DNA of 64,000 nt from an uncultured delta proteobacterium (GCA_963715335.1 CAVQRZ010000033.1:1-64000), one strand, 5' to 3'. Positions 8,190 to 57,781 are shown, counted from the first letter of the stretch. Made by a program: numbers and translations. Notes: generated from the sequence alone by a model not told the origin.

Positions 8190-8366
8190 CTCGTTTTATA
8201 CCAATATCTTAAACGGAGACATTTGAAAACAAGTGTCCCTTTCAAGTGTCCCCGATCCCAAGAACCCGTAGGCATCTCAAATCCCCCTTCAGTGTTGACA
8301 TAGGATAAGTCTCAGTTATATTCGATGTTAACAGCCTTTAATTTAGTTCTGACCGAAGGAGAAGGT

Positions 8367-9746
8367 ATGAAACATTTCGCCCTTTTTGTCCTGTCGACTT
8401 TACTCTGCGTTTCTTTCACGGGGTGTGGGCCTTTTGACGCCTCGAGTGTGCCTGCTCCGGTTGAGGAGACCAGCGCTGTTGCCAGCGTTGAGGCCACTGT
8501 CGAAACCGTCGTCGAAACCACTGTCGCAACAAAACCCGAGCAGCCAGTCTTGTTCGAACCTGGCGCTTTTGAAGACCCCGAGGTTTGCTCTACCTGCCAT
8601 CGTGATATCTATAAAGAATGGTCGAAGTCCATGCATGCCAGCGCCTGGGATGACAAATGGTACCAACCCGACTATCTTTTGGCCCACCAGCAAACCGATG
8701 GAGCCACTGACCTGCTGTGTGGTGCCTGTCATGCGCCGATCGCGGCTCGGACCGGGCTGCTGCCGCCCGCCGATGGCAGCAAGTTCGATGCAGCCTCGCG
8801 CCGGGGGATCTCCTGCGACTTCTGCCACACGGTGTCGGGTGTGGACCAGATGTTCAACATGGGCCATGTTTCAGAGCCGGGCAATGTCAAACGCGGCCCC
8901 CGCGGCGACGGCAGATCTCTCTATCACGAAGTCAAATATACAGAGATTCACACCAAGGCTGACTTCTGCGGCTCTTGCCACATGGTCATCCACCCTGCAA
9001 CGGGTGTGCACATCATTGATACCTGGGATGATTGGCAGAACAATGAGTATGGCAAGCAGGGCATCCGTTGCCAGGATTGTCATATGACGCCCACTCCCGG
9101 TATCAGCAAAACTCCCGGTCGTGCCGCATTGATGGGCAAGATGCGTGACAACCTCCCCTTCCACGGCTTTATCGGCGGCAGTTCCTACGTCCAGGACGCA
9201 ATGGGAAACAAGGAACAGGCAGAAATGTCGCGTGAATTCCTGCGCGCTGCCGCCGAGGTCAAACTCGCGGGGCAGGTTAAGGACAACGGAACTCTCGAGT
9301 TGACCGTCGATGTACACAATGTCGGCGCCGGGCACAAGATCCCCACCGGCACCACCTATATCCGCATAATGTGGCTCCAGGTTGAAGTCGTCGACAGCTC
9401 TGGCAAAGTGGTCTACAGTTCCGGGCACATCGATGACAAGAACCACGTCGATCCGGACGCAGTCTTCTTCCGGGTGCTCTTTCGCAATGCCGAGGGGAAG
9501 TTGACCGACAAGAGCTGGCATGCCCAGGGGATCGGTTACGACCGGCGCATTCCTGCCAAAGGCAAGGACAGCGAAACCTATCGCATCCCCCTGCCCGGCA
9601 AAGGCGATTACCAGGTCACCACGCGGCTTATGTACCGCTCCATGACACAGGCTTCTCTGGATGCGATTTTAAAGCGAACCGGTCAGGCGCTGCCGCCGGT
9701 GGTCAGCGTCGAAATGGCGGCAGCAGAAACCAAAGTCAGTTTCTAG
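8367..9746 (+). CDS. Lipoprotein multiheme cytochrome c with 5 CxxCH motifs and a C-terminal beta-rich domain
   Basis: CSTCH, CGACH, CDFCH, CGSCH, CQDCH; lipobox-like 'FTGC'; 'GAGHKIPTG'. Confidence 0.88.
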   Translation: MKHFALFVLSTLLCVSFTGCGPFDASSVPAPVEETSAVASVEATVETVVETTVATKPEQPVLFEPGAFEDPEVCSTCHRDIYKEWSKSMHASAWDDKWYQPDYLLAHQQTDGATDLLCGACHAPIAARTGLLPPADGSKFDAASRRGISCDFCHTVSGVDQMFNMGHVSEPGNVKRGPRGDGRSLYHEVKYTEIHTKADFCGSCHMVIHPATGVHIIDTWDDWQNNEYGKQGIRCQDCHMTPTPGISKTPGRAALMGKMRDNLPFHGFIGGSSYVQDAMGNKEQAEMSREFLRAAAEVKLAGQVKDNGTLELTVDVHNVGAGHKIPTGTTYIRIMWLQVEVVDSSGKVVYSSGHIDDKNHVDPDAVFFRVLFRNAEGKLTDKSWHAQGIGYDRRIPAKGKDSETYRIPLPGKGDYQVTTRLMYRSMTQASLDAILKRTGQALPPVVSVEMAAAETKVSF

Positions 9747-22619: not shown

Positions 22620-23933
22620 TTAAAAGGCATAGCCCACGCTTAACGCGAACAGGTAAATATCGGTATTGTAATCTCCGTTGGCTGTGCCGACAGGGAATCC
22701 GGCCGCCATGGAGCCGAGAGGATCACCGACCCCATTATTCTTTGTGCGTTCTTCGTGGTACTCGTAACCGAAGGCGGCGGAGAGCGTCCAGGCGGCTTTT
22801 TTCAAGTCCGCACCGACGGTAAACAGGTGCGCATCGCTATCCGGGATAATCGGCTCGAAGGTTTCATTGGGGACCGCATTCTCACCATAGAGGTAGCCGC
22901 AGTTCAGGGCGAGATTGTCATTGAGTTTGTAGTTCGCACCGATATTGTAGCTCCAGGTCGAATGCCAGTTGCGATCCTGAACGATGCTGTTTTCCATCGC
23001 AAAGATAGGCAGGATGGGGTTTTGCAGATCGAGAGTCTGCTTGTCGTTAACATCCCAGTCTTCCCAACGGGCACCGACTTCGATCAACAAAGCATCGGTG
23101 ACCTGAGTCGCAACACCAATCGTAAACTGGGCAGGGAGTTCAATGTCCGACTCGGCGTTGCCTTCCTGAAACAGGAATTGTAGAGTTGGATCAGCACCGA
23201 CACCGTCAAGGGACATGTCGCCTTCGACATCGATCTTGACCTTGCTGCGATAGGCGGCGCCTATCGAGATACGATCCGTGGCTTTGAACAGTACGCCAAG
23301 GTTGTAACCGCTCCCCCAGCCATCGCCGGAAAATTTCTGCCTTATATCCACAAGACCATCGGAAGGGCCAGGAATGAAACCATCAATCACAAAGCCCTGG
23401 TTAATGTTGGCTTTTATTTCGGTGTCGAGGTAAACAAAGTCGAGGCCAACGGCGACCGACAGGCGATCTGTCAGGCGGTAGGAGACCGCCGGGTTGATGT
23501 TCATGGTCAACATTTCCCCCGAGGTGCCGATGTAACGACCGGCGTAACCATCGTCCCATTCGTTGGAGAGCCCAAACGGGAAAAAGATCCCAAGCCCCGA
23601 GGTGAATTTATCGTTGGCCTGGTGCGTGTAGTAAAAGGTTGAGGGGAAATTCCAGGCGCTGTCGCCGTTTTCGCTGCCGCCCCCGGTGTAGTCGATGTCC
23701 CGGTCTGAATAGATGGCGGTTGTCCCGACTTCGATCTGACGCCCGGGCACATCGTTGATCAGCGCCGGGTTGAAATAGAGCGACGAGGGCCCGGTCGTAT
23801 GGGCGACGACGGCATTGGCCTGGCCCAACCCGGAAGCCCCCTGGGTGAAGACCCCGTAACCTGATGCTGAGGCCAGGATCGGAACAATAAGTCCCACAAA
23901 AATCAAAACAGCTATCTTGATACAAACTTTCAT
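22620..23933 (-). CDS. OmpP1/FadL family outer-membrane channel for hydrophobic compounds
   Basis: Signal peptide; 'YFNPA' hatch motif; 'PFGL'; 'PDSD'; C-terminal Phe. Confidence 0.9.
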   Translation of the reverse strand: MKVCIKIAVLIFVGLIVPILASASGYGVFTQGASGLGQANAVVAHTTGPSSLYFNPALINDVPGRQIEVGTTAIYSDRDIDYTGGGSENGDSAWNFPSTFYYTHQANDKFTSGLGIFFPFGLSNEWDDGYAGRYIGTSGEMLTMNINPAVSYRLTDRLSVAVGLDFVYLDTEIKANINQGFVIDGFIPGPSDGLVDIRQKFSGDGWGSGYNLGVLFKATDRISIGAAYRSKVKIDVEGDMSLDGVGADPTLQFLFQEGNAESDIELPAQFTIGVATQVTDALLIEVGARWEDWDVNDKQTLDLQNPILPIFAMENSIVQDRNWHSTWSYNIGANYKLNDNLALNCGYLYGENAVPNETFEPIIPDSDAHLFTVGADLKKAAWTLSAAFGYEYHEERTKNNGVGDPLGSMAAGFPVGTANGDYNTDIYLFALSVGYAF

Positions 23934-23960
23934 TATTAATCCTCCTATAACATTAATGAC

Positions 23961-24488
23961 TTAACTTGCTTTTTTCAGGATCTGATGCATTGCTGCATGA
24001 GCCGTTGCTCCGATGCTCGTGAGACAGGGCAACAGTTCTTCGTATCGTTTGTATTCCACATCCAGGCTTTGTTTGCTTGTCAAGCTCAACAAGCCAGTCG
24101 GCGCGCCCTCCGGCTTCAGCGGCAAGGCAACACCGCTGCCAAAACCATGTTTATTGACATCCAGCATGAATTTTTGCACTTCGGGACCAGCGGCTTCCCA
24201 GCCGGCGCTGGAATCCCATAAAAAGGGTTCATTTTCGTTGCGGCAGTGAAGCACGATCGGATCAATTGCCTGATAGCCTTTCACCAGGTATGTCATCAGC
24301 CAGCGAGTCGTTTGTCCGCTGGCGAGGGTTGCCGGCATAGCCATAGGCGAGTAAGGGTTCTCGGAGGCATATAGCCACATTTCAAAACCCAGGGACTGCA
24401 ACGTCTGAATCATAACCCGCCGCAGGCCACTGCTGGTCGTCGCAGTCTGGATCGATTTTATATGCCTCTCCAGGGCTTGCACGTCCAT
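23961..24488 (-). CDS. Stand-alone LuxR autoinducer-binding domain with no HTH
   Basis: 'WLMTY..Y.AIDPIV..PFLW..GFGSGVALP' matches the AHL-pocket pattern; 175 aa; next gene starts 27 bp after the stop. Confidence 0.8.
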   Translation of the reverse strand: MDVQALERHIKSIQTATTSSGLRRVMIQTLQSLGFEMWLYASENPYSPMAMPATLASGQTTRWLMTYLVKGYQAIDPIVLHCRNENEPFLWDSSAGWEAAGPEVQKFMLDVNKHGFGSGVALPLKPEGAPTGLLSLTSKQSLDVEYKRYEELLPCLTSIGATAHAAMHQILKKAS

Positions 24489-24500
24489 ATAATCCTGTAA

Positions 24501-26100
24501 TCAATCAGGCGCAAAAACCGCGGCAAACCTGTCGAAAGCGGTTTGGTTGTCGAGCCGGTTGGTCATTTGCAACTTCTCCAGGTCATGCCGCGTCCTTAAA
24601 AATAACCGGCCCTGTTGCTTTGACAGGGCGCTGAGTTGGTCGAGGTTGTCGCCACGGTAGATCGGGCTGGAATTATCCAGGGCCATGAACGCCGCAAAGA
24701 TATGCTGTTTGGCCATAGCGGAGTCCATCGTCTGGTGTCTCCACTCCTGGAGGTATCCGCTCAAGTCATACTCATCGCGATGATCGAAGATGGGGCTGAA
24801 TGGCCACACCAAAAACGGGTAGAGAGACCAGTTAAAGTGGCCAGGGCCGACATGATCTTCGAGTCGCTTAATGAATGCCACGGTTGTTTCTATGCTTTTC
24901 TCAGTCTCGCCGGGGTAGCCGAAAATAAAGTAGCACGAGCAATTTATCCCGGCTGAGATCAGCTCCTTGATGACCCTCTCATTCAGCAAGGGGCTTGACT
25001 GTTTGTTCATGTTGGAGAGAATCCCGGGGTCGGCGGATTCCAGCACCAATCTGCACCTCCCTGCACCCCGCCTGTTTTAACAGCTGCAAGTCAACACCCT
25101 TGAGGCTCTCCGGGCGAATCATGCTCATCCACTCCAGAGAGATACCCTCATCGATAAATCGACGACATACCGTCTCTATGTCATTTTTTCCCAGCCTGAA
25201 ATTATCGTCAACAAACCAGACGTACCTGATGCCACGCTTCTGGGTGGCTTTGAGTTCGTCAACGAGCAGGTCCATGGGCTTAATGTGGTTCAGCCTGTGA
25301 TCTTTATTAAAGCTGCAGAAATGACACCGATGAGGGCACCCCGTGCTTGCCCGTACCGGAACGACCTTATGCACAAAAATCTCGTCCGGCAACCCCAGCC
25401 AGTCGATGGGGGCCTCCTTGTAGCCGGTCACATCATCAACCCGGGGGGAAAACTGATATTGGCCCTCCACCACCTGTGCAGTGTTCGGCTGGTTTCTCCA
25501 GAGCTCATTGCCGGCCAGCACATTTTGAATGACCTCATAAAGGGTGTCTTCACCGAGCGTGCTGATGACATAGAGATCCGCAGGATCGCTGTTCGCGCTA
25601 AAAAACAGGAACTGCTGCCTGATTTCCTCTGTATCATAGAGAGGGTCATTGCCTGACCTTGCAAAAATCCGCCAGGAAAGTTCCACGAAAGGTCCACCGA
25701 TAACAATGATTGCGCCCGGACAGCTTTGCCTGACTTCCGTTACGAGCTGAAAGATCGCCTTGCGTTGAATCAGGTAGGTTGTTGAAATTGCAACGACCTT
25801 GGGATTTCTTTCGGCCAGACGTTTGAACCTCTGTTGTTCTTTTTGAAAGTTGTTGATCAGGGTGGTCCTGACTCCACGTTTGGTCAAATAATTGTAGAGG
25901 TAGATCCCGTTCAACTTCGGTGCAGACTCCCAGCTACACTCGCTATTTCCCGCAATCGGCGGGACAACCTTGCCGCCGTGCTCGACAAAGTTGCGCACCA
26001 CCTGGATATTTGCCGGATAGCCATCCAGGACCAGGCGCAGCGGGTTCGAGGCACTGAGCGAATCGACACCATTGTCCGCTATAAGAATCACATCACTCAT
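24501..26100 (-). CDS. B12-binding-like radical SAM protein; one frameshift near 25045
   Basis: 'IVIGGP', 'STGCPHRCHFC', 'FVDDNF'; continues 'ESADPGIL..FIFGYPGET' in ORF 24501..25049. Confidence 0.85.
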
Positions 26101-46893: not shown

Positions 46894-49800
46894 ATGGCCA
46901 CTTTATTTTCCGTCGTCAGCCCAGGCAAATCGTCTTTCATGGCATTAGCGCATATGGCAACAAGTCTTTCCCTGTCAGTGTTGCTGCTATTCGTTACGAC
47001 CCCTGTATTCGCCTACGGTATAAACGAATGCGCCGCTTCTCGTTACGGCGCTGACCTTAATTGCACCGCCGGCGACGTCGCCATCACCGGTATTGCAATT
47101 GCACCGGGCAGCCCGACCAAATGCGTCGGCGGTGAGACCTTCACCGTTGATCTCGACATCACAGTCAACTTTGCCACACCCGACCGCTGGGACATCGGAA
47201 TTTTTCTTTCTGAAGACGGCAATGACCCTCAAAACCTCATCGGCAACGGCGGCGCTTCAAGCTGTTCGGTCGGCATCCTGCCGAACTCAAGCCCCTTTCT
47301 CGATCTCGACTCAAACGTCGGCACTGACACCTGCGGTGACGGCAACGGCGCGATCAACGGAGGCACCGGTTCCGGTGTCGTCCGGATGAATGCAGTGCCA
47401 TTGGCCTGTCAGTCCACCGACATGAGCAATGGCAACCTCTTTATCCCCTTCGTCGTCACCTGGGACAATCAGAAGAGCCCTACGGGTGCTACCTGCACCT
47501 CGATCGCTGACCCGTTCCCGAACACCAAATCCAAGTGCAATGCTCCAGACGGAACGGTCGCCGCGGAAGTGCAGTACGGTACGATTCAAACCATTGTCCT
47601 GCCGGACATTACCAAGAACGACGGCATCTCCGCCATCACTGCGGGAGGCAGCAGCACATATAACGTGGTCATTACCAACACCACGGGCTCAACCCTCGTC
47701 AATGCCATCTTCAGAGACCCTGCGGTACCCAACCTGACAGTCAACAGTCTTAGTTGCTCCGCATCCAGCGGTACAATCTGTCCGGCAAGCTATCCGATAG
47801 CGGTCATGCATGGCGGCGGTATCCTTCTGGAGCCGATGGCCCCGGGCAGCAGCGTGACTTTCTCCGTCGGAGCAACCGTTGACGCCGCCACCCCGGCCGG
47901 CACCATCACCAACACTGCCTCGGTGATTGTCCGCGGCGAAAGCAACTCGGCCAGTGATACCAACGATGTGACCACCAAGTTCAACGTCGCCAAGGAATTT
48001 GCCCCGTCCGCCATCAACGCCGGTGAGACCACGGTCGTGAGTATCACGCTGGCAAACACCAACCTGAGTGTTGCAACCAACGTCGCCTTTAACGACAACT
48101 ATCCGGCCGGCCTTGTCAACACCGCGACTCCAGCTGTGACCAACAGCTGCGGCGGAACGGCAACGGCAGCCGCGGGAGGGAACTCCCTGGTCTTGAGTGG
48201 CGGGACGCTTGCCGCCGGGGCAACCTGCACCGTCACTGCCAACGTGACCAGCGCAGTCGCCGGTGCCTACAGCAACAACACGGGGGCGATTTCCAGCGAT
48301 CAATACGCCGGCGCGGCAGCCACTGCAAACCTCGCAGTCGGGGTCTCGAGTCTGCAGACTGCGACCAAGACCTGGCAGAATCTTAACAGCGGCGAAGCGG
48401 ATCCCGGCGACACCGTCCGCTACTCTATTATCATCCCGGAGACTGCCGGTTCGGCTGCCAGCGGCGTATCGTTTTCGGACACACTGCCTGCAACCCTGAG
48501 CGGGGCAACCGTTGTGTCCTGCCCCATAGGTGCAACCTGCAATGTCAGCAGGGCAAACCGTTACAGCGACGAATATCACGATTCCCCCGAACGGTTCAGT
48601 GGCCATTGTTTTTGATGCGACCATTCAGCCAGCGACACCGCCGGCAACCGCCATCAACAATTGCGCCAGCATCAGCAATCCCACTGGTATAGGCGCCTCA
48701 CCCTGTGCGTCCACGATCACGGTTTCACCTTCAGCTGTCGCCCAAACCGGCAACAAGCCGCTCTATCTCGACAGCAGCACCACCATGTCCCGAACCATGC
48801 CGTCGGCAACGCCGGCCCCGGTAACCATAACCAGCGGCGCTTCGCAAACCTGGTCGCTTAACCCGACCCTGGCCATGCCGGTCACCATCAGCCCGACCAT
48901 CACCCCGCTGGCCATTCTCCCAGTCAACCTCTACCTGGCCAGCGACGTGGCGAACGCGAAGCGGACCGCGCAGGTCACCTTGTCCTGCTCCGGCGGCGGC
49001 ACCAGTTATGCCCAGACGATGATCTTCGACGGCACCGCTCTCAACAACCCTTACCTGCCAACTACGCCGACCCAGGTGCTGTTCAACAACCTGCCCTTCT
49101 CTGCCAACCAGACCTGCGCTGCCGGTCAGACCTGGAATTTGTCCGTCAGCAATGCCTCCGGGTCCGGGAACGTCATAGTCTATCCGGTGAGCGGAGGAAA
49201 CAACTCTTACATCTCGCTGCCATCGTTGAGTGTCATCAACGTCGACAGCATCACCTTCCACACCGATTCCTACGCCAACGGCGGCGGCAGCACCGTCACC
49301 TCGCTCGTCGCAGGGAGCCCGGTCTGGGTCCAGAGCACAGTGAGCGACCCCTTCGGCAGCTACGACATTACAGGTGCCAGTCTGCTTCTGACTGATTCCA
49401 ACGGCACCGTGCAACTCGGCACCGCACCCGCCACTCCCGTCGCCATGTCTCAGAGATTCGATTCGAATGGCGCAACCAAGATCTATGAGTACGGCCCCTA
49501 CAGCATCCCGTCCGCAGGCCCCGGCGGGGCATGGACAGCACGCGTTGATGCGGCCGAAGGAACCGAGGGAACGGTCAGTGACTATGGACTGGGATCCTTG
49601 ACCGTCACCTTGCCGATGCCGGCCCTGACGTTCCTCAAGTCCTCCCTGGTCGAACGCGACCCGGTGAACGGCACCACGACCCCCAAGGCGATCCCGGGCG
49701 CCGACGTGCTGTACACCCTGCAGGCTGTCAATTTCGGCACCGGTGCCGTGGATAGCAACAGTCTGCGGCTTGTCGATCCGATCCCGACCAACAGCCGCCT

Positions 49801-50062
49801 GTTCGTCAACGATCTCGGCCAGGGGTCACCGGTGCTGTTCGCCGACGACGATAACGACAGCGGCTTCGCACCGCCGCAACCCTTCACTCTCGACTACTTC
49901 AGCGATGCGTCTTGTGCAACCGTCACGACGCTGACCCCGGACGCCGATGGCTTCGACGCCAACGTCCGCTGCCTGCGCATCAACATGACCGGCAGCTTCA
50001 GCGCCGCGGCCGGTGCCGTGACCCCGGATTTCGACCTGACCTTCCGGGTGCGCATCGAATGA
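46894..50062 (+). CDS. Secreted multi-DUF11 protein, putative tip adhesin; one frameshift near 48550
   Basis: Signal peptide, Cys-rich N-terminal domain, DUF11 repeats (TK..Y...N..D..PG..F...NTA), C-terminal DUF11 lacking its last strand. Confidence 0.8.
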
Positions 50063-50116
50063 TGATTAACAATGATTAATAGAGCGCAAACCCTGCGTAC
50101 GAAAGGAGTATCACCC

Positions 50117-50602
50117 ATGAAGAAGATTTTGTTACTTACCATCAGCCTGCTGCTACTGCTGGCACCACTCACCGCCTTCGCGGCGGAGGATTTGCGCTTC
50201 AGTTCGACCGCCGAGGTCGAAAGACCGCGGGTCAACGCCAAGGGGGAGAAGGTCATGGTACGTGAACCGGCCACCCTGTTGCAGCCCGGCGAGATCGCGA
50301 TCTACACCAACATCGTCACCAATATCGGCCAACAGCCGGCAGAGGAGATCGTGATCGATAATCCGTTGCCTGAGAACACCGAGTACCTCGGCGGCAGTGC
50401 AACGGAAAACGGTTATGTCGTGCTCTTTTCGGTCGATAAAGGCAAGAGTTTCGGCGGTCAGGATGAGTTAACCGTACCGGACGGCCAAGGTGTTCAGCGA
50501 CCGGCCGAGCCCAAAGATTACACCAATATCCGCTGGACCATGCAGTCCCGGCTCCAACCGGGAGCAACCGGCATCGTCGAATTCCGCGTCCGCGTCAGGT
50601 GA
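50117..50602 (+). CDS. Small secreted incomplete-DUF11 protein
   Basis: Signal peptide; 'PGEIAIYT..TNIG..A..IVIDNPLP..LQPGATGIVEFRVRVR'; AAGGAG RBS. Confidence 0.8.
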   Translation: MKKILLLTISLLLLLAPLTAFAAEDLRFSSTAEVERPRVNAKGEKVMVREPATLLQPGEIAIYTNIVTNIGQQPAEEIVIDNPLPENTEYLGGSATENGYVVLFSVDKGKSFGGQDELTVPDGQGVQRPAEPKDYTNIRWTMQSRLQPGATGIVEFRVRVR

Positions 50603-50659
50603 TGACGGACCGCAACCAATCAACCGAACCAGGATTTTGACCAGATAAGGAGTGACACC

Positions 50660-50761
50660 ATGATCATGCAACAAACGCGCGGCCTGCCGCCGCCCAGACA
50701 ACCAACCAGCAATTGCGCACCAGGTCAGGAGGCTGCCTATGGCAATCAGCGACCGCCGTAA
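50660..50761 (+). CDS. Candidate 33-aa Pro-rich peptide MIMQQTRGLPPPRQPTSNCAPGQEAAYGNQRPP
   Basis: AAGGAG 7 nt before ATG; below the ORF-track length cutoff. Confidence 0.35.
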   Translation: MIMQQTRGLPPPRQPTSNCAPGQEAAYGNQRPP

Positions 50762-50834
50762 TTACGACGTACCCATAACAACATTGGCAACATTACTTGA
50801 AACAGATGCAGTAACGACTAAAGGAGATAGAAAG

Positions 50835-52166
50835 ATGAAGAACTTTCAAAACATCGGCATCGGGCTGCTCACTGCAGTCCTCATGCTGGCCAGCTTTACC
50901 AGCAACGCACTGGCTTTAACCGAAGCCTGCACCCCGATCAACAACCAGGCCACCTTGAGTTACAAGGTCGGCACCGTCGATCAGACCCCCATCGCCTCCG
51001 ACGGTGACAGCGGCACCGCTGGCGCCCAGGCAACCACATTCAGCGTCGCCACCAAAGTCGACCTGACTGTGGCCGGCGGCACAGTACTCTCTGTGGTCCC
51101 CAACGCTGTGGACCAGGTCCTCACCTACAGCATCACCAATACCGGTAACGACCAGCAGCGCTACAACCTGCGCGTCTGGGCCGCTGACGGCACTGAAGTG
51201 GTCTCAGGCCACACCGACAACTTCAATATGAGCAACGTCGATGTCTACACCGACGACGACAACGACTATACCACCGGCACACCAACCCTGATTGCTTCCA
51301 ACGTTGCAACCGACGGTAGTAACTTCTCCGGCTACACAGCCGTGGTCGAGCCCGGCGCGACTATCTACGTCCACCTGGTCGCTGATGTCCCTGGGGCTCA
51401 ACCCAACGGTGACGCCGCCGTCTACGCCCTGCAGGCAATCACCCATCAGCCCACCGGCCTCGACGGTATAGACATTGGCGATGGCACCGATGGCGGCGAG
51501 ACCGACGAGTCAGCCTCCACCACAAACGGTTGTGGCGATGTCGTGGTCCTGGCGGATGGCGATGTTGACGGCGCTAGTGTTTTTGAAGCCGGAACAACCG
51601 ATCTCTCCGACGCCGCCAAGAACGGCTACGGCTATGCCGTCGGCGTCTACCACGTCACAAGCGCAGCCATCTCAGTGACCAAATCCCAAGTAACCCTCTG
51701 GGATCCGATCAACTTTGGCACCAGCCCGCAACCGATCCCCGGCGCTTATGTGACCTACACCTTAACGATTGCAAACAATGGCGCCTCCTCGGCAACCTTG
51801 AGCCAGATCGTCGACGATCTACAAGACACCGTGCTGGCCCTCGACGTCGACTTCTACACCGGCGGAGATACCGATCCAGCTGGTGGTCCCTACACAAATG
51901 GCGCCGCAGGCAGATCAGTTGAGATCGATTATGGTGGCACCAGCACGCGCGTTGACACCTACGGAACGGCAGCTGATTCCGGCTCGGACACGGATGGGGT
52001 CGAATTCTCTGGCGGCCTGGGCGGAGTCCTGACGGTGTACTTCACCGATCCAGGTTCGGAAGGCACCGTGCTGCCTGCCGGAACCTACGGTGGAACCCTC
52101 TATACGCAAGGGGAGTTGAAGACCGGTGAATCAGTGGCCATCAGCTTCAACGTAATCATTCAGTAA
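50835..52166 (+). CDS. Secreted DUF11-type protein, putative major filament subunit
   Basis: AAGGAG RBS; signal peptide; mature N-terminus 'LTEACTPINNQATLSY'; C-terminal 'VTKS..PIPGAYVTYTL..IVDDL..GESVAISFNVIIQ'. Confidence 0.8.
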   Translation: MKNFQNIGIGLLTAVLMLASFTSNALALTEACTPINNQATLSYKVGTVDQTPIASDGDSGTAGAQATTFSVATKVDLTVAGGTVLSVVPNAVDQVLTYSITNTGNDQQRYNLRVWAADGTEVVSGHTDNFNMSNVDVYTDDDNDYTTGTPTLIASNVATDGSNFSGYTAVVEPGATIYVHLVADVPGAQPNGDAAVYALQAITHQPTGLDGIDIGDGTDGGETDESASTTNGCGDVVVLADGDVDGASVFEAGTTDLSDAAKNGYGYAVGVYHVTSAAISVTKSQVTLWDPINFGTSPQPIPGAYVTYTLTIANNGASSATLSQIVDDLQDTVLALDVDFYTGGDTDPAGGPYTNGAAGRSVEIDYGGTSTRVDTYGTAADSGSDTDGVEFSGGLGGVLTVYFTDPGSEGTVLPAGTYGGTLYTQGELKTGESVAISFNVIIQ

Positions 52167-52182
52167 ACGACATCACTCACTA

Positions 52183-55100
52183 ATGCTCAGAACGTTCCGC
52201 CATATTTCGCGCTTCGCGCGGCTCGGGACCGACCTTCGGGTCGGCACCCTGGCCGTGCTCTGCGCGCTGGCGGCCAACAGTATGTTCATCTTCAAACTCC
52301 AACCCGGTCGGTCGGTCGGTCGCGCAAGCGGCCGGCCGGCCCGTCGGCCCGAAGGGATGGCATTCTGCCGTAGCTTCGGGCGGGCGTTCGGTCTTTTAAC
52401 GACCATTTTGGCCCTGATAGCAAGCCTGAATACAACCGCCCATGCGGCAACGCCGCCCGGCACACCGATCAACAATCAGGCCGTGCTTGACTACGCAATC
52501 GGCGGCGCGACACAACCAGCGGCACATTCGAACCTGGTCAGTTTCACCGTGCGTAGCCCGGCGCTGATTGAATTCCTGGCTTATGCGCCGACACTTCCTG
52601 CTGCCGAAGCGGTGCCTGTGCCTGACACCGACTACCGGAACGGTGGCAGCTTCGTGTCGATTCCGGCGCCACCGGAGACAGCCATCCAGCCGATGCCGTT
52701 GACCCCGGCCGAGCTTTACCACGGCGGCAACCCCTTCTACCTGCGCCTGACTGACCTCGACCAGAACAGCGACCCGGCCACGGTCCAGACGGTATTAATC
52801 ACCGTCACCTGCATTGAGACCGGCGATACAGAAGTTCTGCGGCTCACTGAGAGCGGTCCGGATACCGGTGTATTTACCGGCTACCTCCCCTCCATCAGCA
52901 GCGGTAACGCGGCGGCGGACGGGATGCTGTTCGTGATTCCGCAAGGCCGTGTCAGAGCGACCTATACCGACGTCTTCGACGGCACCGATTCAACGATCGC
53001 TGCAGCGCTGGTCGATCCCTACGGTTACGTCTTCGACAGCGCCACCGGCGACGCAGTAGATGGCGTCACCGTCACCCTGATCGACCTGGCCACCGGCCAG
53101 CCCGCCGCCACCATCGTCGGAGACAACGGTGCCCCCGGCTTCCCGGCTAGCATTGTCACCGGCAGCAGCTTCGATTTCGGCGGGCTCACCTATAGCAACC
53201 CGCCAGGTGGTTACCGCTTCCCCTTCGTCCCGTCTGGCAGTTACCGTATGGTGGTCACCAATGCAGATAACTACACCGTGCCCTCGAGTCTTAGCGACAG
53301 TGAGTTGCAGAGTCGTTCCTGGTGGGCCAGCTCAGGCTATGTCGTCGGCGACGGCTGGCAGAGTGGCCAGTGGACAGGTGTGTTCAACGTCAACCCCGGC
53401 CCGGCGATTCGCCTCGATATCCCGGTTGATCCGCTGGTCACCTATCTCTGGCTGCAGAAAGATGTCAACCGCGACTACGCCTCGACCGGTGATTTCCTGC
53501 AATACACGCTGACCCTGGAAAACAATAACAAGCTCTCTGCGGCACCGGGAGTAATAATCTCCGACCAGCTGCCGCTCGGCTTCCGCTACCAGAAGGGTTC
53601 GACCCATATTGCCGGTCGCAAACGGACCGATCCAACGGTCAGCCCTGACGGCCGGACTTTGACCTTCACACTCGCCGACATGCCTTCAGACAGCAGCATT
53701 GAAATCAGCTACGTGGTCGAGGTTGCAGCAGGCACGAAACTGGGCGAGGCCGTCAACCGCGCTCAGGCCAGCGACGGCAACGGTATCTACTCGAATATCG
53801 CCAGGGAGACGGTTGAGGTCCAAGACGCCTTCTTCCGCAACACGGTGATCCTCGTCGGGCGGGTCCTCGAAGGAGCCTGCGCCGAGGCGGACACAGTGCA
53901 AAGGGGCGTCCCCGGCGTCCGCGTCTACCTCGATGACGGCAGCTACGTGGTCACGGATAAGGATGGCAAATACCATTTCGAAGGGGTCACACCAGGGCTG
54001 CATGTCGTTCAGGTCGATACGCTCACTCTGCCGGACGGCTATGAGATGACCTCCTGCGAGCAGAGCAGCCAGTTTGCCGGGAGGACCTTCTCCCAATTCG
54101 TCGACCTCCAGGGCGGAACCCTGTGGCGGGTCAACTTCTACACTGCGCGAAAAGCACCGCCAACCGGCGCGGCCGGGCTTGTACTCGAGGCCAGCATCGA
54201 CAGACATCAGGCCAGCTTCAGCGTTGACTTGTCGGCAAAGACTATACCGCTCAGCAACCTCCGTACGACTATCATGCTCCCCACCGGGGCCCGTTATCTC
54301 GCCGGCACAGCAGCCCGCGACGGTCAGCCCATCGACGATCCGCAGATCTTCAATGAGACTGTAACCTTTCGTTTCCCGGCACTGCTGGTCGATCAGCATA
54401 GCGTCATCACCTTCAATGCTGACATGACCGGGACGACCACAGGAGAGCTGCCGGCCAGGGCGCTACTGACCTTTGATACCTTGTCTGAGAAGAACCAGCG
54501 CACACCGTTGGCCGAGGTGCGCTTCCAGCGAACCAATGAAGAGCTGGTGATGACACATCCCTCCAGCCCAGAACAGTCGATCGCTACGACTGGTCTGATG
54601 GTGGAAGGTGTCCCCGCACCGGTACAAAAGACTTTACCGCCGGCCGCTACTACGCCGCCCAAACTTGACCAGAAGCTGCTGACAACGACCCCGCACGAGC
54701 GCAGTATCGTCTGGCCGGCAGAGGGTTTTGTGCCGGAGATTCCGAACATCGAGGTGATGGTCCAGTTCCAGCGTGGCGAACAGGTTGCACTGTTTCTCAA
54801 TGACGAACCGGTCCCGGCGCTCAACTTCGACGAAAGCAAACAGGTTCCAAACAGCACCATGATGATCTCCAGCTGGGCCGGGGTTGACCTGCGCGACGGG
54901 CTCAACAGGCTCGAAGCGGTGCTGACAGACGCCGGCGGCAAAGAGGTGACCCGACTGCGCCGCGACATCTGGTTCGTCACCATGGCGGAAAACCTGGAGT
55001 ATTTTCCCGAGCAGTCGACGCTGGTCGCCGATGGCCTGAAACCGCCAACCTTTGCGATTCGTCTGACAGACCGTGACGGCCATCCACTGCGCCCGAAGCA

Positions 55101-57781
55101 ACAAGTGCAGTTCCGGGTCTCGGCACCCTACCTTGCTCTGCACAACAATGGTGAGCGGACGCTCAATCCAGCGGAAGCACAGGGAAGCTTTGCAAGCGGT
55201 GCCGATGGCCTGGCTTACCTGCAGCTACAGCCAACTACCCAGGCTGGCGAAGTGACAGTGGCGATCATGATGCCGGATGGACCACAAGAGATCACCGCCT
55301 GGCTTAACCCGGCCCCTCGCGACTGGATCCTGGTCGGCTTCGCCGAAGGCACCGTCGGCCACAACACCATCAACGACAACCAGGTCAGTGCCGAAGAAGC
55401 CGGAATCGACGAGGACAGCTATAGCGATGGGCAGGTCAAGTTCTTCGCCAAGGGCGCGATCAAGGGGGATTGGCTGCTGACCCTGGCCTACGACTCCGAC
55501 AAACCGGACCTCGATGGCGACAGCCTGTATCAGATTATCGACCCCGACACCTACTACCCGCTCTACGGGGACGAAACCCAGCAGGGGTACGAAGCCTCCA
55601 GCGCCGAAAAACTCTACGTCAAGCTGGAGCGCGACCAGTTCTACGCGCTGTTCGGCGACATGGACACCGGCCTGAACCAGACCGTGCTGTCGCAGTACAG
55701 CCGCAGCATGACCGGCTTCAAGTCGGAGACTGCAGAACGAGCGCTTCACCTACACGGTTTTTGCCGCCGAAACCAAGCAGGCCTTCAGGAAGGACGAGAT
55801 TCGCGGCGACGGTACGGCTGGCCGCTACTCCCTGTCGCAGTCGGAACTGGTGATCAACTCGGAAGAAGTGGTCATCGAAACCCGCGACCGCTTCCACAAT
55901 GAACTGATCGTCAAGGAAGAACGACTGTCACGCCACGTCGATTACGACATCGACTACGATGCCGGCACTCTGTACTTCAAACGCCCGGTGCCGAGCAAAG
56001 ATCAGGATTTCAACCCGGTCTTCATCGTGGTCCGCTACGAAACCAAGGCTTCATCCAATACCAACCTGAATTATGGTGGCCGTGCCGCGCTCAGGGTACT
56101 CAACCAGCAGGTCGAGGTCGGCGGCAGTATGGTCCACGAAGAGAACGGCGACGAGAAAGGCGATCTATACGGTGTCGGACGTCACCGTCAGGCTGACTCC
56201 GCAGACCACTCTGCGCGCCGAGGTCGCCACCTCCGACATTGACTCCATTGATGATGGGAGACCTCAGTGGCAACGCATACCTGGCCGAGCTCGAGCATCT
56301 CGGCGAGAGCTATGACCTCGTCGCCTGGTTCCGGCAACAGGATGCGGAGTTCGGTCTCGGGCAGCAGAATAGTGGCACTGAGGGGATGCGCACCTACGGC
56401 ACACATGGCAGCTATCGCTTCAATCCGAGGTGGAGTCTGAGTCGGTGAGGCCTACCACGAGGACAACCTCGATACCGATGCCACCCGCGACGTCGAGACC
56501 GTACAGGCACTGTACCAGACGGAACGCTACGGTCTGAACGCCGGTGTACGCGAGGCCCGTGACAAATTTGACGATGGCGAGACACAGACCAGCCGGCAGA
56601 TGCTTGCCGGCGCCAATTGGAGCACACCGGACCGCAAGCTGACCCTGCGCGCCACCCACGAGCAATCGCTGGAGGGGCAGGAACGAGAACAGTCGACTAC
56701 CCGACCCGGACGATGCTCGGCGCCGATTACCAGCTGACCCGTAAGATCAGCCTCTTTGCCGAGCAGGAATTCACCTGGGGCGAGCAGGAGGATACCGAAG
56801 GGACGCGAGTCGGACTCAATGCCACGCCCTGGAAGGGTGGCGAAGTGCGCACCTCAGTGGAGCGCTACAACGTGGAGAACGCGGAACGGGTCTTCGCCCT
56901 GTTCGGGGTCGGCCAGGTCTGGCAGGTGACCCAGAAATGGAGCGTCGATCTGTCCATCGATCGCAGCTACACGGTTAAAAATGAGCCGGCCGGAGAGCGG
57001 GTCAACGGCAACGTGCCGACCGGCCAGCGGCGGCGACGACGATTTCACAGCCGTATCGGTCAGGCGCCGCCTATCGCACTGAAAGATGGTCGTGGTGGAA
57101 CCGCCTGGAAACGCGCCAGGGGGACAGTGAGGACAAGGTTGGAATCAGCTCCGGCGTGGTTGGCTGATCTCCAGGAAGGGGTAGCGGTTCTCCGCCCGTT
57201 TGATGGCCTTCATCAACAATTCGCAAGACGGCAGCGACAGTGACGAGGAAGAACATCACGCTGGCCCTGGCCTACCGCCCCGACCGGAGCCGCTGGATCC
57301 TCCTCGAACGTCTTGACCTGTCCCTCTACAACGAGAAACGGCGAGAGTGTGGACAACGACAGCATGCGCATCGTCAATCATCTGCACGCCAACTTCCGTA
57401 CCGCCGATCGCAAAGTGGCAGACGTCCTTTTACTACGGCCTCAAATATGTGCGTGAGAGTTACAACGGCGACCACTACGATGGTTACACCGATATGATCT
57501 CAGTCGAAACCCGCTACAACATCAACCGCAAGTGGGACATCGGCGTACACGGTGCACTCCTGCACTCATGGAACAGCAACCAGCTTGACCATAGTCTCGG
57601 CGCCGACATCGGCTATCTGGTCATGACCAACGCCTGGGTCAGTCTCGGTTATAACGTGGTCGGCTTCGAAGACAAGGACTTCTCGGATGCCAACTACACC
57701 GCCGCAGGTCCCTACCTGCGATTCCGAGTCAAGTTCGATCAGCAATCGGTGCGTGAAGCGGCTGCATGGCTGGGTCGATAG
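52183..57781 (+). CDS. Very large outer-membrane protein with DUF11 and SdrD/CnaB-like domains and a C-terminal beta-barrel; several frameshifts after ~55730; start 52183 or 52357
   Basis: 'AHA|ATPPGTPINNQAVLDY', 'GVPGVRVYL..VVTD.DGKYHF', 'YYPLYGD', 'DYDIDYDAGTLYF', C-terminal 'GYNVVGFEDKDF..GPYLRFRVKFD'. Confidence 0.8.

Follow-up and report, generated by a model that had tools for sequence, protein, structure and literature searches.

A split-DUF11 operon of an uncultured delta proteobacterium that may encode a covalently joined donor-strand surface fibre

How might the secreted proteins of a diderm bacterium be joined end to end, if no recognisable chaperone, usher or sortase gene accompanies them? 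This question is raised by four co-oriented genes, here named A to D, which lie on the + strand of a 64,000-nucleotide stretch of DNA from an uncultured delta proteobacterium (GCA_963715335.1, CAVQRZ010000033.1:1-64000; hereafter the window). A preliminary description of this locus interpreted the operon, from the way its products begin or end within DUF11 domains, as a head-to-tail strand-complemented pilus consisting of tip, cap, shaft and outer-membrane (OM) anchor. Our analysis indicates that this interpretation was largely right, if incomplete. We consider it somewhat probable that A, C and D form a covalent donor-strand fibre, A<-C(n)<-D, that is independent of the chaperone-usher pathway.

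The argument starts from the protein termini, whose pattern was recovered by translation as it had been described. DUF11/TIGR01451 matches (Pfam and NCBIfam) are present in all four genes; A and D match strongly, B lies at the borderline and C falls short of the threshold. With PF01345 (cut-off 24.6 bits) the scores are 58.5 for A, 35.9 for D, 24.5 for B (just below the cut-off) and 20.5 for C, while with TIGR01451 (cut-off 24 bits) B reaches 30.8 and C 22.5; a precomputed PF01345 match is also present on six relatives of C. The stalk of A is built of DUF11 and DUF7933 domains (DUF7933 at 93.3 bits) and lacks a donor strand. Intact DUF11 domains inside this protein end in '...TFSVGATVDAATPAGTITNTASV' (ITNTASV being encoded at 47905-47925) and '...VFDATIQPATPPATAINNCASI' (48650-48673), i.e. 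the complete domains run beyond the 'F.V' strand into '..ATPAGTITNTASV' and '..ATPPATAINNCASI'. The C-terminus of A itself ('LTFRVRIE', stop codon ending at 50062) comes directly after the 'F.V' strand. The same applies to B, a single DUF11-like acceptor domain that is devoid of the final Asn-bearing strand and ends 'EFRVRVR' (50602), and to C, which ends 'SFNVIIQ' (52166), five residues past the F438 column.

The missing segment is found at the start of two other chains. Protein C is laid out as a signal peptide (residues 1-27), a donor segment, domain 1 and a split acceptor domain 2; its mature form begins 'LTEACTPINNQATLSY' (50916), and mature C and mature D both open with the pattern 'TPINNQA.L.Y'. 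The sole recognised DUF11 domain of D is complete ('EAVNRAQAS'). A loose donor motif occurs within the first 220 residues of 105 of the 107 D relatives of at least 1600 amino acids (aa) among the 120 matches listed, compared with 14 of 107 in a control window placed at residues 600-820. The proposed logic, according to which A is acceptor-only, C carries both ends and D is donor-only, is borne out in 23 related loci, where the homologues of A, B, C and D begin and end according to the same donor/acceptor pattern.

The split also has a chemical side, which the preliminary description, correct as it was about the strand, had missed. A survey published in 2025 solved the structure of a DUF11 domain, renamed the family CLIPPER and identified an intramolecular isopeptide triad, Lys715-Asp748-Asn806, in structure 9IFR (accessible text of PMC12617251). 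In the intact DUF11 domain of A, the Asn of this triad is that of the 'ITN' in the motif noticed initially, and the spacing from Lys ('DITK') to Asp ('FRDP') is 34 residues by hand count, versus 33 in 9IFR. All three triad residues are held by the internal DUF11 domains of A and D, as seen in their translations. The last domain of A, like that of C, retains Lys and Asp, and its chain stops before the Asn strand. In A these residues lie in 'LTFLK' (49625-49645) and 'LVDPIP' (49769-49789), respectively, and both are retained in all 12 aligned A-type acceptor domains as well as in each of 15 C-type ones. Judging by motif position, K283 and D327 of C, together with their counterparts in A, most probably represent the Lys and Asp of the triad, and the donor residue of the N37 type its Asn. 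The five residues past F438 and the ten from the mature N-terminus to N37 add up to 15, versus 16-17 in uncut domains, and the split thus appears to lie in the loop ahead of the Asn strand. Since it parts the Lys and Asp from the Asn of a known triad, the junctions between subunits are probably covalent.

Conservation of C is concentrated at exactly these positions. In an alignment of 109 diverse full-length relatives (31-57% identical to C) the invariant columns, besides the start Met, are N37, N105, K283 and D327, and every one of the 109 proteins stops exactly five residues past the F438 column. Among 182 C-family proteins, 171 have the donor motif within their first 150 residues and 180 have the terminal strand pattern. 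C is also the family with the most relatives. A word index yielded 44 of them, and a profile constructed from 22 relatives retrieved 5769 clusters at E≤0.001, 1347 of them at E≤1e-30, from public metagenomes clustered at 50% identity. The clusters nearest to B and C in the ESM Atlas are named 'hypothetical protein', with DUF11 recorded in a minority of their members.

Related loci were collected by a degenerate-pattern scan of one genome per species, with a 10-row alignment. The 23 loci found belong to Desulfuromonadales, Desulfobacterales, Burkholderiales, Gallionella, Gammaproteobacteria, Acidiferrobacterales, Lentisphaeria, Nitrospiraceae and Troglogloeales metagenome-assembled genomes. The order B-C-D is kept in approximately 18 of the 23, wherever the contig permits, and across several diderm phyla; an A-type gene with the same C-terminal domain is found upstream or downstream of B-C-D. 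Conservation of gene order and of termini had been suggested initially as a check on the proposal, and both were maintained across phyla. On the evidence of these sequences, the terminus pattern far exceeds chance. The A-D system is a patchy accessory trait: C was detected at E≤1e-20 in nine of 301 sampled genomes of the window's phylum, five of these being the five sampled members of a single family, and in none of the same-order or same-class relatives listed in that sample. The source genome (3.3 Mb in 43 contigs) contains one A-D-type locus.

A-type proteins combine one and the same acceptor with different N-terminal modules, including Laminin_G_3 plus DUF2341, a Reelin-B-like module, SpaA_3/SpaA_4, and DUF11 or DUF7933 stalks. 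In this variety they resemble, by analogy, tip adhesins.

Does the donor strand act on another molecule, or on its own? A natural experiment is provided by P0046, a metagenome protein of 696 aa that is a fusion of two C units. The donor of its second unit ('IANTGSVAY') begins eight residues past the 'FSVTVN' of the first, the F-to-N spacing at this internal junction is 16 (versus 16-17 for intact domains), and the fusion protein as a whole still has an unpaired donor at its N-terminus and an open acceptor at its C-terminus. Longer C-like fusions were absent among proteins scoring at E≤0.001 in the homologue search, a result which carries little weight. The length of the donor link is also informative. 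Domain 1 begins its first strand 22-23 residues after the donor Asn in 37 of the 109 relatives (32 in the window's C), and the corresponding distance between consecutive DUF11 domains of A is 23. A link this short suggests that the donor sits where the preceding domain of a tandem rod would be. The model of C superposes on the elongated tandem C-terminal domains of antigen I/II (4.7-5.9 Å over 218-237 residues, Z 8.0-8.5); otherwise, fold searches gave generic tandem immunoglobulin (Ig) matches, e.g. integrin legs. We therefore favour insertion in trans, because the open domains of A and B and the strand of D would otherwise be orphans, and because the second donor of P0046 completes the previous unit and not its own. 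A complex prediction with two copies of mature C (residues 28-443, 109-row alignment) scored 0.41 against a mark of 0.42 (runs 0.50, 0.41 and 0.38; controls 0.00), which speaks neither for nor against binding. Donor strands of C and D were also compared within the same locus and between loci (7.8 versus 7.2 identities of 21, permutation p = 0.07); several D donors had been misplaced by the regular expression, and the comparison was dropped.

The proposed assembly would proceed as follows. A, C and D would be exported via their Sec signal peptides, and the last domain of both A and C would be an Ig-like DUF11/CLIPPER domain awaiting its Asn strand. By donor-strand complementation, the N-terminal strand of each subunit would fill the open domain of the one before it, whereupon a Lys-Asn isopeptide bond would probably form spontaneously and lock the junction. 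The resulting chain would lead from A, the variable adhesin tip, through one to many copies of C to the donor-only D, whose barrel of at least 30 strands in the outer membrane would be the sole candidate in the operon for both conduit and anchor. Several loci possess, upstream of B, an additional C-like gene (Table 1) that is shorter and whose product likewise starts with a donor and ends open; the window has none. The product of this gene may be a minor subunit.

The preliminary description had called D a giant beta-barrel protein, and a large C-terminal barrel is indeed seen in the AlphaFold2 model of a homologue. From its N-terminus, D comprises SpaA/CarboxypepD_reg-like domains, one complete DUF11 domain, an SdrD_B-like domain, a weak Big_1 match and the barrel. 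The model was computed from the last 796 residues of the intact homologue in locus L002 (61 rows; mean predicted local distance difference test score, pLDDT, 75.4) and shows at least 30 long strands between its residues 215 and 779, the barrel region measuring approximately 660-700 residues. Its fold matches are confined to large OM barrels (LptD, Deinococcus SlpA, SprA, TonB-dependent transporters and porins), with template modelling scores of at most 0.29 and Z of at most 13.5 (Foldseek and VIA-align); no usher is among the matches listed. The ~95 residues preceding the barrel (approximately 55441-55730 in the window; residues 1190-1285 of the L002 protein) are among the most conserved of D and were modelled with pLDDT below 50, and this segment may serve as a plug, or for docking with a required partner. 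As the only outer-membrane component of the operon, D is the likely conduit and anchor of the fibre. A search with the D region of L002 gave 1287 relatives, most of which have DUF11 and CarboxypepD_reg domains and many an OmpA peptidoglycan-binding domain; one D homologue bears the name of an isolate, Deltaproteobacteria bacterium IMCC39524. In the L002 protein the OmpA domain occupies residues 795-892 (L002:13520-13813; 38.4 bits), between the Ig-like region and the barrel; it is absent from the window's D and from the class of 1865 aa (P0186).

Two observations on the N-terminus of D may be added. An ATG at 52183 would extend the protein by a conserved stretch of some 50-60 residues ahead of its signal peptide (52183-52356), as is also the case in loci L002, L003, L014 and L016; in this they resemble very large autotransporters, with their extended signal peptide regions. 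Two proteins of 2772 and 2809 aa (P0235 and P0244) were considered as C-D fusions and rejected, as they have instead a triplicated N-terminal module of ~300 residues. This module reads '..IEFLHYAPPG..DQN..', and the donor of these proteins is degenerate ('EIVNFVELI').

The role of B is the point at which we depart from the initial proposal, in which it had served as the cap. The window's B has Asn where the catalytic Asp would be expected ('IDNPLPE', 50354-50374), and Ser at the position of the Lys. Asn stands at the Asp position ('NP.P') in all 15 B proteins aligned, and the Lys position is K in just six of them. Because the catalytic Asp is Asn and the Lys is not conserved, B would, by its sequence, be an open acceptor incapable of locking or bonding. 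The role of a cap is also uncomfortable because, on a linear fibre, B would compete with A for one distal position. We tentatively suggest, as a possibility that we place above that of a structural cap, that B is a reversible holder of donor strands. Such a holder would keep the strands from locking too early, or within their own subunit, until assembly starts; release of the donor from B would then be driven by the irreversible bond that a true acceptor makes. Alternatively, B may form a non-adhesive distal end of the fibre.

Table 1. Coordinates of the A-D genes and of the features discussed (positions refer to the window unless a locus is named)
Feature	Position	Strand	Basis or remark
Gene A, candidate tip adhesin	46894..50062	+	Open reading frames; ~1050 aa if read through
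Split acceptor domain of A, C-terminal	49625..50059	+	Ends 'TFRVRIE', without Asn strand
Gene B, small secreted protein, 161 aa	50117..50602	+	Pfam/TIGRFAM and 15-protein alignment
Gene C, candidate shaft subunit, 443 aa	50835..52166	+	Translation, alignments, model
Donor segment of C, residues 28-66, 'LTEACTPINNQATLSY...'	50916..51032	+	Asn37 (50943-50945) invariant
Acceptor domain 2 of C	51630..52163	+	Lys283 (51681-51683), Asp327 (51813-51815)
Gene D, giant donor-only outer-membrane protein, ~1800 aa if read through	52357 (or 52183)..57781	+	
Donor strand of D, mature N-terminus, 'ATPPGTPINNQAVLDY'	52447..52494	+	Motif survey of D relatives
Conserved C-terminal region of D	55441..57781	+	~95 conserved residues, then barrel ending 'YLRFRVKFDQ..'
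Stretch of D with four frame changes	55728..57412		Short-read contigs one base shorter at 55728 (two runs), 56254, 57060, 57165, 57190, 57255 and 57412
Signal peptide cleavage (slash; by eye)			A ..TPVFA/YGINE; B ..TAFA/AEDL; C ..NALA/LTEA; D ..TTAHA/ATPPG
Shorter C-like genes	L006:2751-3452, L015:7549-8328, L017:8181-9194, L018:303-1451, L019:3189-3509		Also in genomes G040, G049, G086 and G192

The same termini might be explained in other ways. A defined short heteromer of one A, one C and one D (A<-C<-D), i.e. a stalk assembled after export in which C does not polymerise with itself, fits the same donor/acceptor evidence. The donor of D, being next to the barrel already at the outset, could take up the first C, and the second, shorter C-like gene found in several loci could add a single module. 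Yet C offers to A, and receives from D, the same donor and acceptor types, so that addition of C to C would be chemically equivalent; moreover, P0046 demonstrates that unit-to-unit junctions exist, and the C family is the most numerous of all. We regard a heteromer of fixed size as unlikely. Even less credible, in our judgement, is self-complementation, in which C would be a circularly permuted two-domain monomer bonding its own N-terminal strand to its last domain, while the strand of D alone would act in trans on A or B, or none would. An intramolecular bond would explain the invariant triad equally well, the 32 residues separating Asn37 from domain 1 in the window's C would give some slack, and the single-chain AlphaFold2 model of C has a pLDDT of 82-91 over residues 31-50. 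AlphaFold2 monomers, however, are also known to self-dock the donor strands of chaperone-usher pilins. Self-complementation would furthermore leave a single donor, that of D, for two conserved open acceptors (A and B), and C without a link to the conserved B-C-D operon. In more than a few relatives (the 37 mentioned above) the donor link is as short as that between rod domains, and in P0046 the second donor follows only eight residues after the first acceptor. As for the view that the locus holds nothing special, but simply unrelated DUF11 surface proteins, in part pseudogenes, whose ends fall near domain borders by chance, the frameshifts of A and D in the window and the commonness of DUF11 proteins (accessible text of PMC12617251) would be in keeping with it. 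The ends, however, fall inside the domain and at the same column in all 109 relatives, the gene order is conserved across phyla, and frameshifts also affect PBP2 and radical-SAM genes elsewhere in the window, with short-read contigs lacking the extra bases of D. This view strikes us as very improbable indeed.

Several points nevertheless count against the A<-C(n)<-D fibre. The support for it consists of sequence patterns and single-chain models, and the sequences fix no copy number, as the short heteromer makes plain. The confidence of the monomer model over residues 31-50 of C implies intramolecular docking. C is below both DUF11 cut-offs (20.5 versus 24.6 bits in Pfam, 22.5 versus 24 bits in TIGRFAM). 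A profile search of the PDB with C found nothing at E≤1 and did not reach 9IFR, and the DUF11 region of A gave only chance-level matches, so that the assignment of the triad draws on motif position and spacing. This assembly has frameshifts in both A and D, and for D alone do short-read contigs support an error. Finally, the OmpA domain of many D relatives suggests that part of the N-terminal region of D is periplasmic, which makes the route of an N-terminal fibre to the surface hard to place; if that part is periplasmic, the fibre would have to cross the barrel lumen.

The frame breaks themselves had gone unmentioned in the preliminary description, which read through all five frameshifts of A and D; its terminus pattern stands. 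A consists of two overlapping frames (46894..48615 and 48530..50062). Comparison with the intact L002 homologue (tblastn) placed the one-base shift near 48526-48575, within a DUF11 domain of which both halves are intact. D spans five frames, with changes near 55730, 56260, 56990-57018 and 57320-57404; its homologues are single open reading frames of 1650-2020 aa in 13 loci. The five frameshifts are probably assembly indels, because the homologues are intact, short-read contigs lack the extra bases of D, and the essential PBP2 gene and a radical-SAM gene are also split. The short-read metagenome contigs have a depth below 5 and possibly come from other strains; none of them covers 48300-48616. 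The PBP2 gene, which lies beside mreB (129-1836, - strand), is divided over three frames, and the B12-binding radical-SAM gene (24504-26100, - strand) over two.

How does the proposed fibre compare with known systems? Chaperone-usher pili are composed of a tip (FimH/PapG), a rod (FimA/PapA) and a terminator (FimI/PapH), assembled with a chaperone (FimC/PapD) and an usher (FimD/PapC). The likeness to them, which here is one of sequence pattern, extends to an Ig-like fold short of its last strand, an N-terminal donor, an acceptor-only tip, ordered subunits, basal growth and an operon-encoded OM barrel. The differences are that the A-D operon has no PapD-like or usher match, that its subunits come from another domain family, and that the junction is probably covalent. 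Furthermore, the barrel of D has at least 30 strands as against 24 and is fused to a donor-only terminal subunit, and B offers a groove, not a strand. As had been stated initially, PapD, usher (PapC), sortase and type IV pilus families are without a match among the window's open reading frames of at least 150 aa (Pfam scan), and the same holds for the TasA and SipW families among the frames scanned.

Known CLIPPER/DUF11 domains share with this system the family itself (matches in A, D and B), the same triad of Lys (on the first strand), Asp and Asn, and service as a stalk module of diderm surface proteins; in them, however, the triad is contained in one chain and the bond is intramolecular, whereas here the Asn strand starts other proteins (PMC12617251, in its accessible part). 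The terms 'donor', 'permut', 'strand complementation' and 'beta-barrel' do not occur in the text of PMC12617251 that was accessible. BsaA of Clostridium perfringens, a member of the TasA family, likewise combines N-terminal strand exchange with an Asn-Lys isopeptide formed via an acidic residue, without sortase, according to the accessible part of a preprint (bioRxiv 10.1101/2024.11.04.621531). The same source describes a TasA-like fold and an N-E-K triad (here N-D-K on DUF11) in a monoderm, with SipW and type IV pilus-linked secretion and no OM barrel. The thread Saci_0406 of Sulfolobus acidocaldarius is also a head-to-tail donor-strand fibre, for which inter-subunit isopeptides have been proposed and next to which a putative cap gene is located; it differs in being archaeal, in having no Pfam domain, in joining Asn57 to the N-terminal amine of subunit n+2, and in the lack of an outer membrane (both from the accessible text of PMC9715654).

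Sortase pili (SpaA, RrgB, Spy0128) are comparable as covalent fibres of CnaA/CnaB-type Ig domains with Lys-Asn isopeptides and with tip, shaft and base pilins. In these, a sortase joins the threonine of LPXTG to a pilin-motif lysine, whereas here the autocatalytic bond of the domain itself would link the subunits; in A, B and C the chain finishes with the F.V.I strand and no LPXTG follows, and the window contains no sortase match. Type V pili (FimA/Mfa1) differ in that they are made from lipoprotein precursors, have their N-terminal strand removed and use a C-terminal donor, the donor here being N-terminal. The signal peptides of the A-D proteins end in AXA at the cleavage site, without a lipobox cysteine (assessed by eye). 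With classical autotransporters D has in common a beta-rich N-terminal passenger and a C-terminal OM barrel in one chain, as well as, in its homologues, the long extension ahead of the signal peptide. Autotransporter barrels have 12 strands; the Autotransporter Pfam family gave no match in D or its intact homologues, and the model has at least 30.

Two papers were considered as precedents and set aside. The match in the paper on haloarchaeal tafi was to 'DUF1102' and not to DUF11, and in the F-ENA paper, as far as its accessible part goes (which applies to the tafi paper as well), DUF11 supplies only spacer domains of an anchor protein. We found no published description of such a split-DUF11 fibre, in a literature search that covered few subscription journals; the preliminary description, likewise, had not recognised the locus as a characterised pilus class.

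A review of 2026 names chaperone-usher pili, type IV pili and curli for diderms, and sortase- or isopeptide-linked pili for monoderms only (accessible text of PMC13721041). If the fibre exists as proposed, a widespread surface-fibre pathway would be added to the short diderm list. Autocatalytic isopeptide chemistry, known from within single chains of diderm adhesins, would then serve for an extracellular polymerisation of proteins that requires neither enzymes nor energy, a very large family of OM barrels and thousands of 'hypothetical' DUF11 proteins would receive a function, and the system would be a source of natural orthogonal pairs for peptide and protein ligation. It is conceivable, although we would not yet count on it, that the locus represents a further class of diderm pilus in the full sense, i.e. 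one with no homologue of a chaperone, usher, sortase or ATPase. In such a pilus a CLIPPER domain, cut in its last loop, would ligate itself head to tail like a natural tag-and-catcher, a single-chain barrel of at least 30 strands, itself the last subunit, would be both secretion channel and root for the product, and the bond-dead B would be a new assembly chaperone.

The genes flanking A-D are housekeeping genes unrelated to the operon. Upstream lie genes for a sigma-70 factor, BamD/YfiO and an acetyl-CoA hydrolase, and downstream those for a radical-SAM/SPASM protein, a peroxiredoxin, a XerC-like recombinase and a hydrolase. Two further observations were made elsewhere in the window. At 8325-9746 (+ strand) a protein of 473 aa is encoded that has cytochrome c554/c7 and MtrC/MtrF-like multihaem matches and is unrelated to the fibre genes. 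At 22620-24488 (- strand) the gene for a FadL/TodX-type outer-membrane transporter adjoins that for a 175-aa protein, which matches LuxR-type regulators in their autoinducer-binding domain only; the same frame contains no DNA-binding part, possibly as a result of another frameshift.

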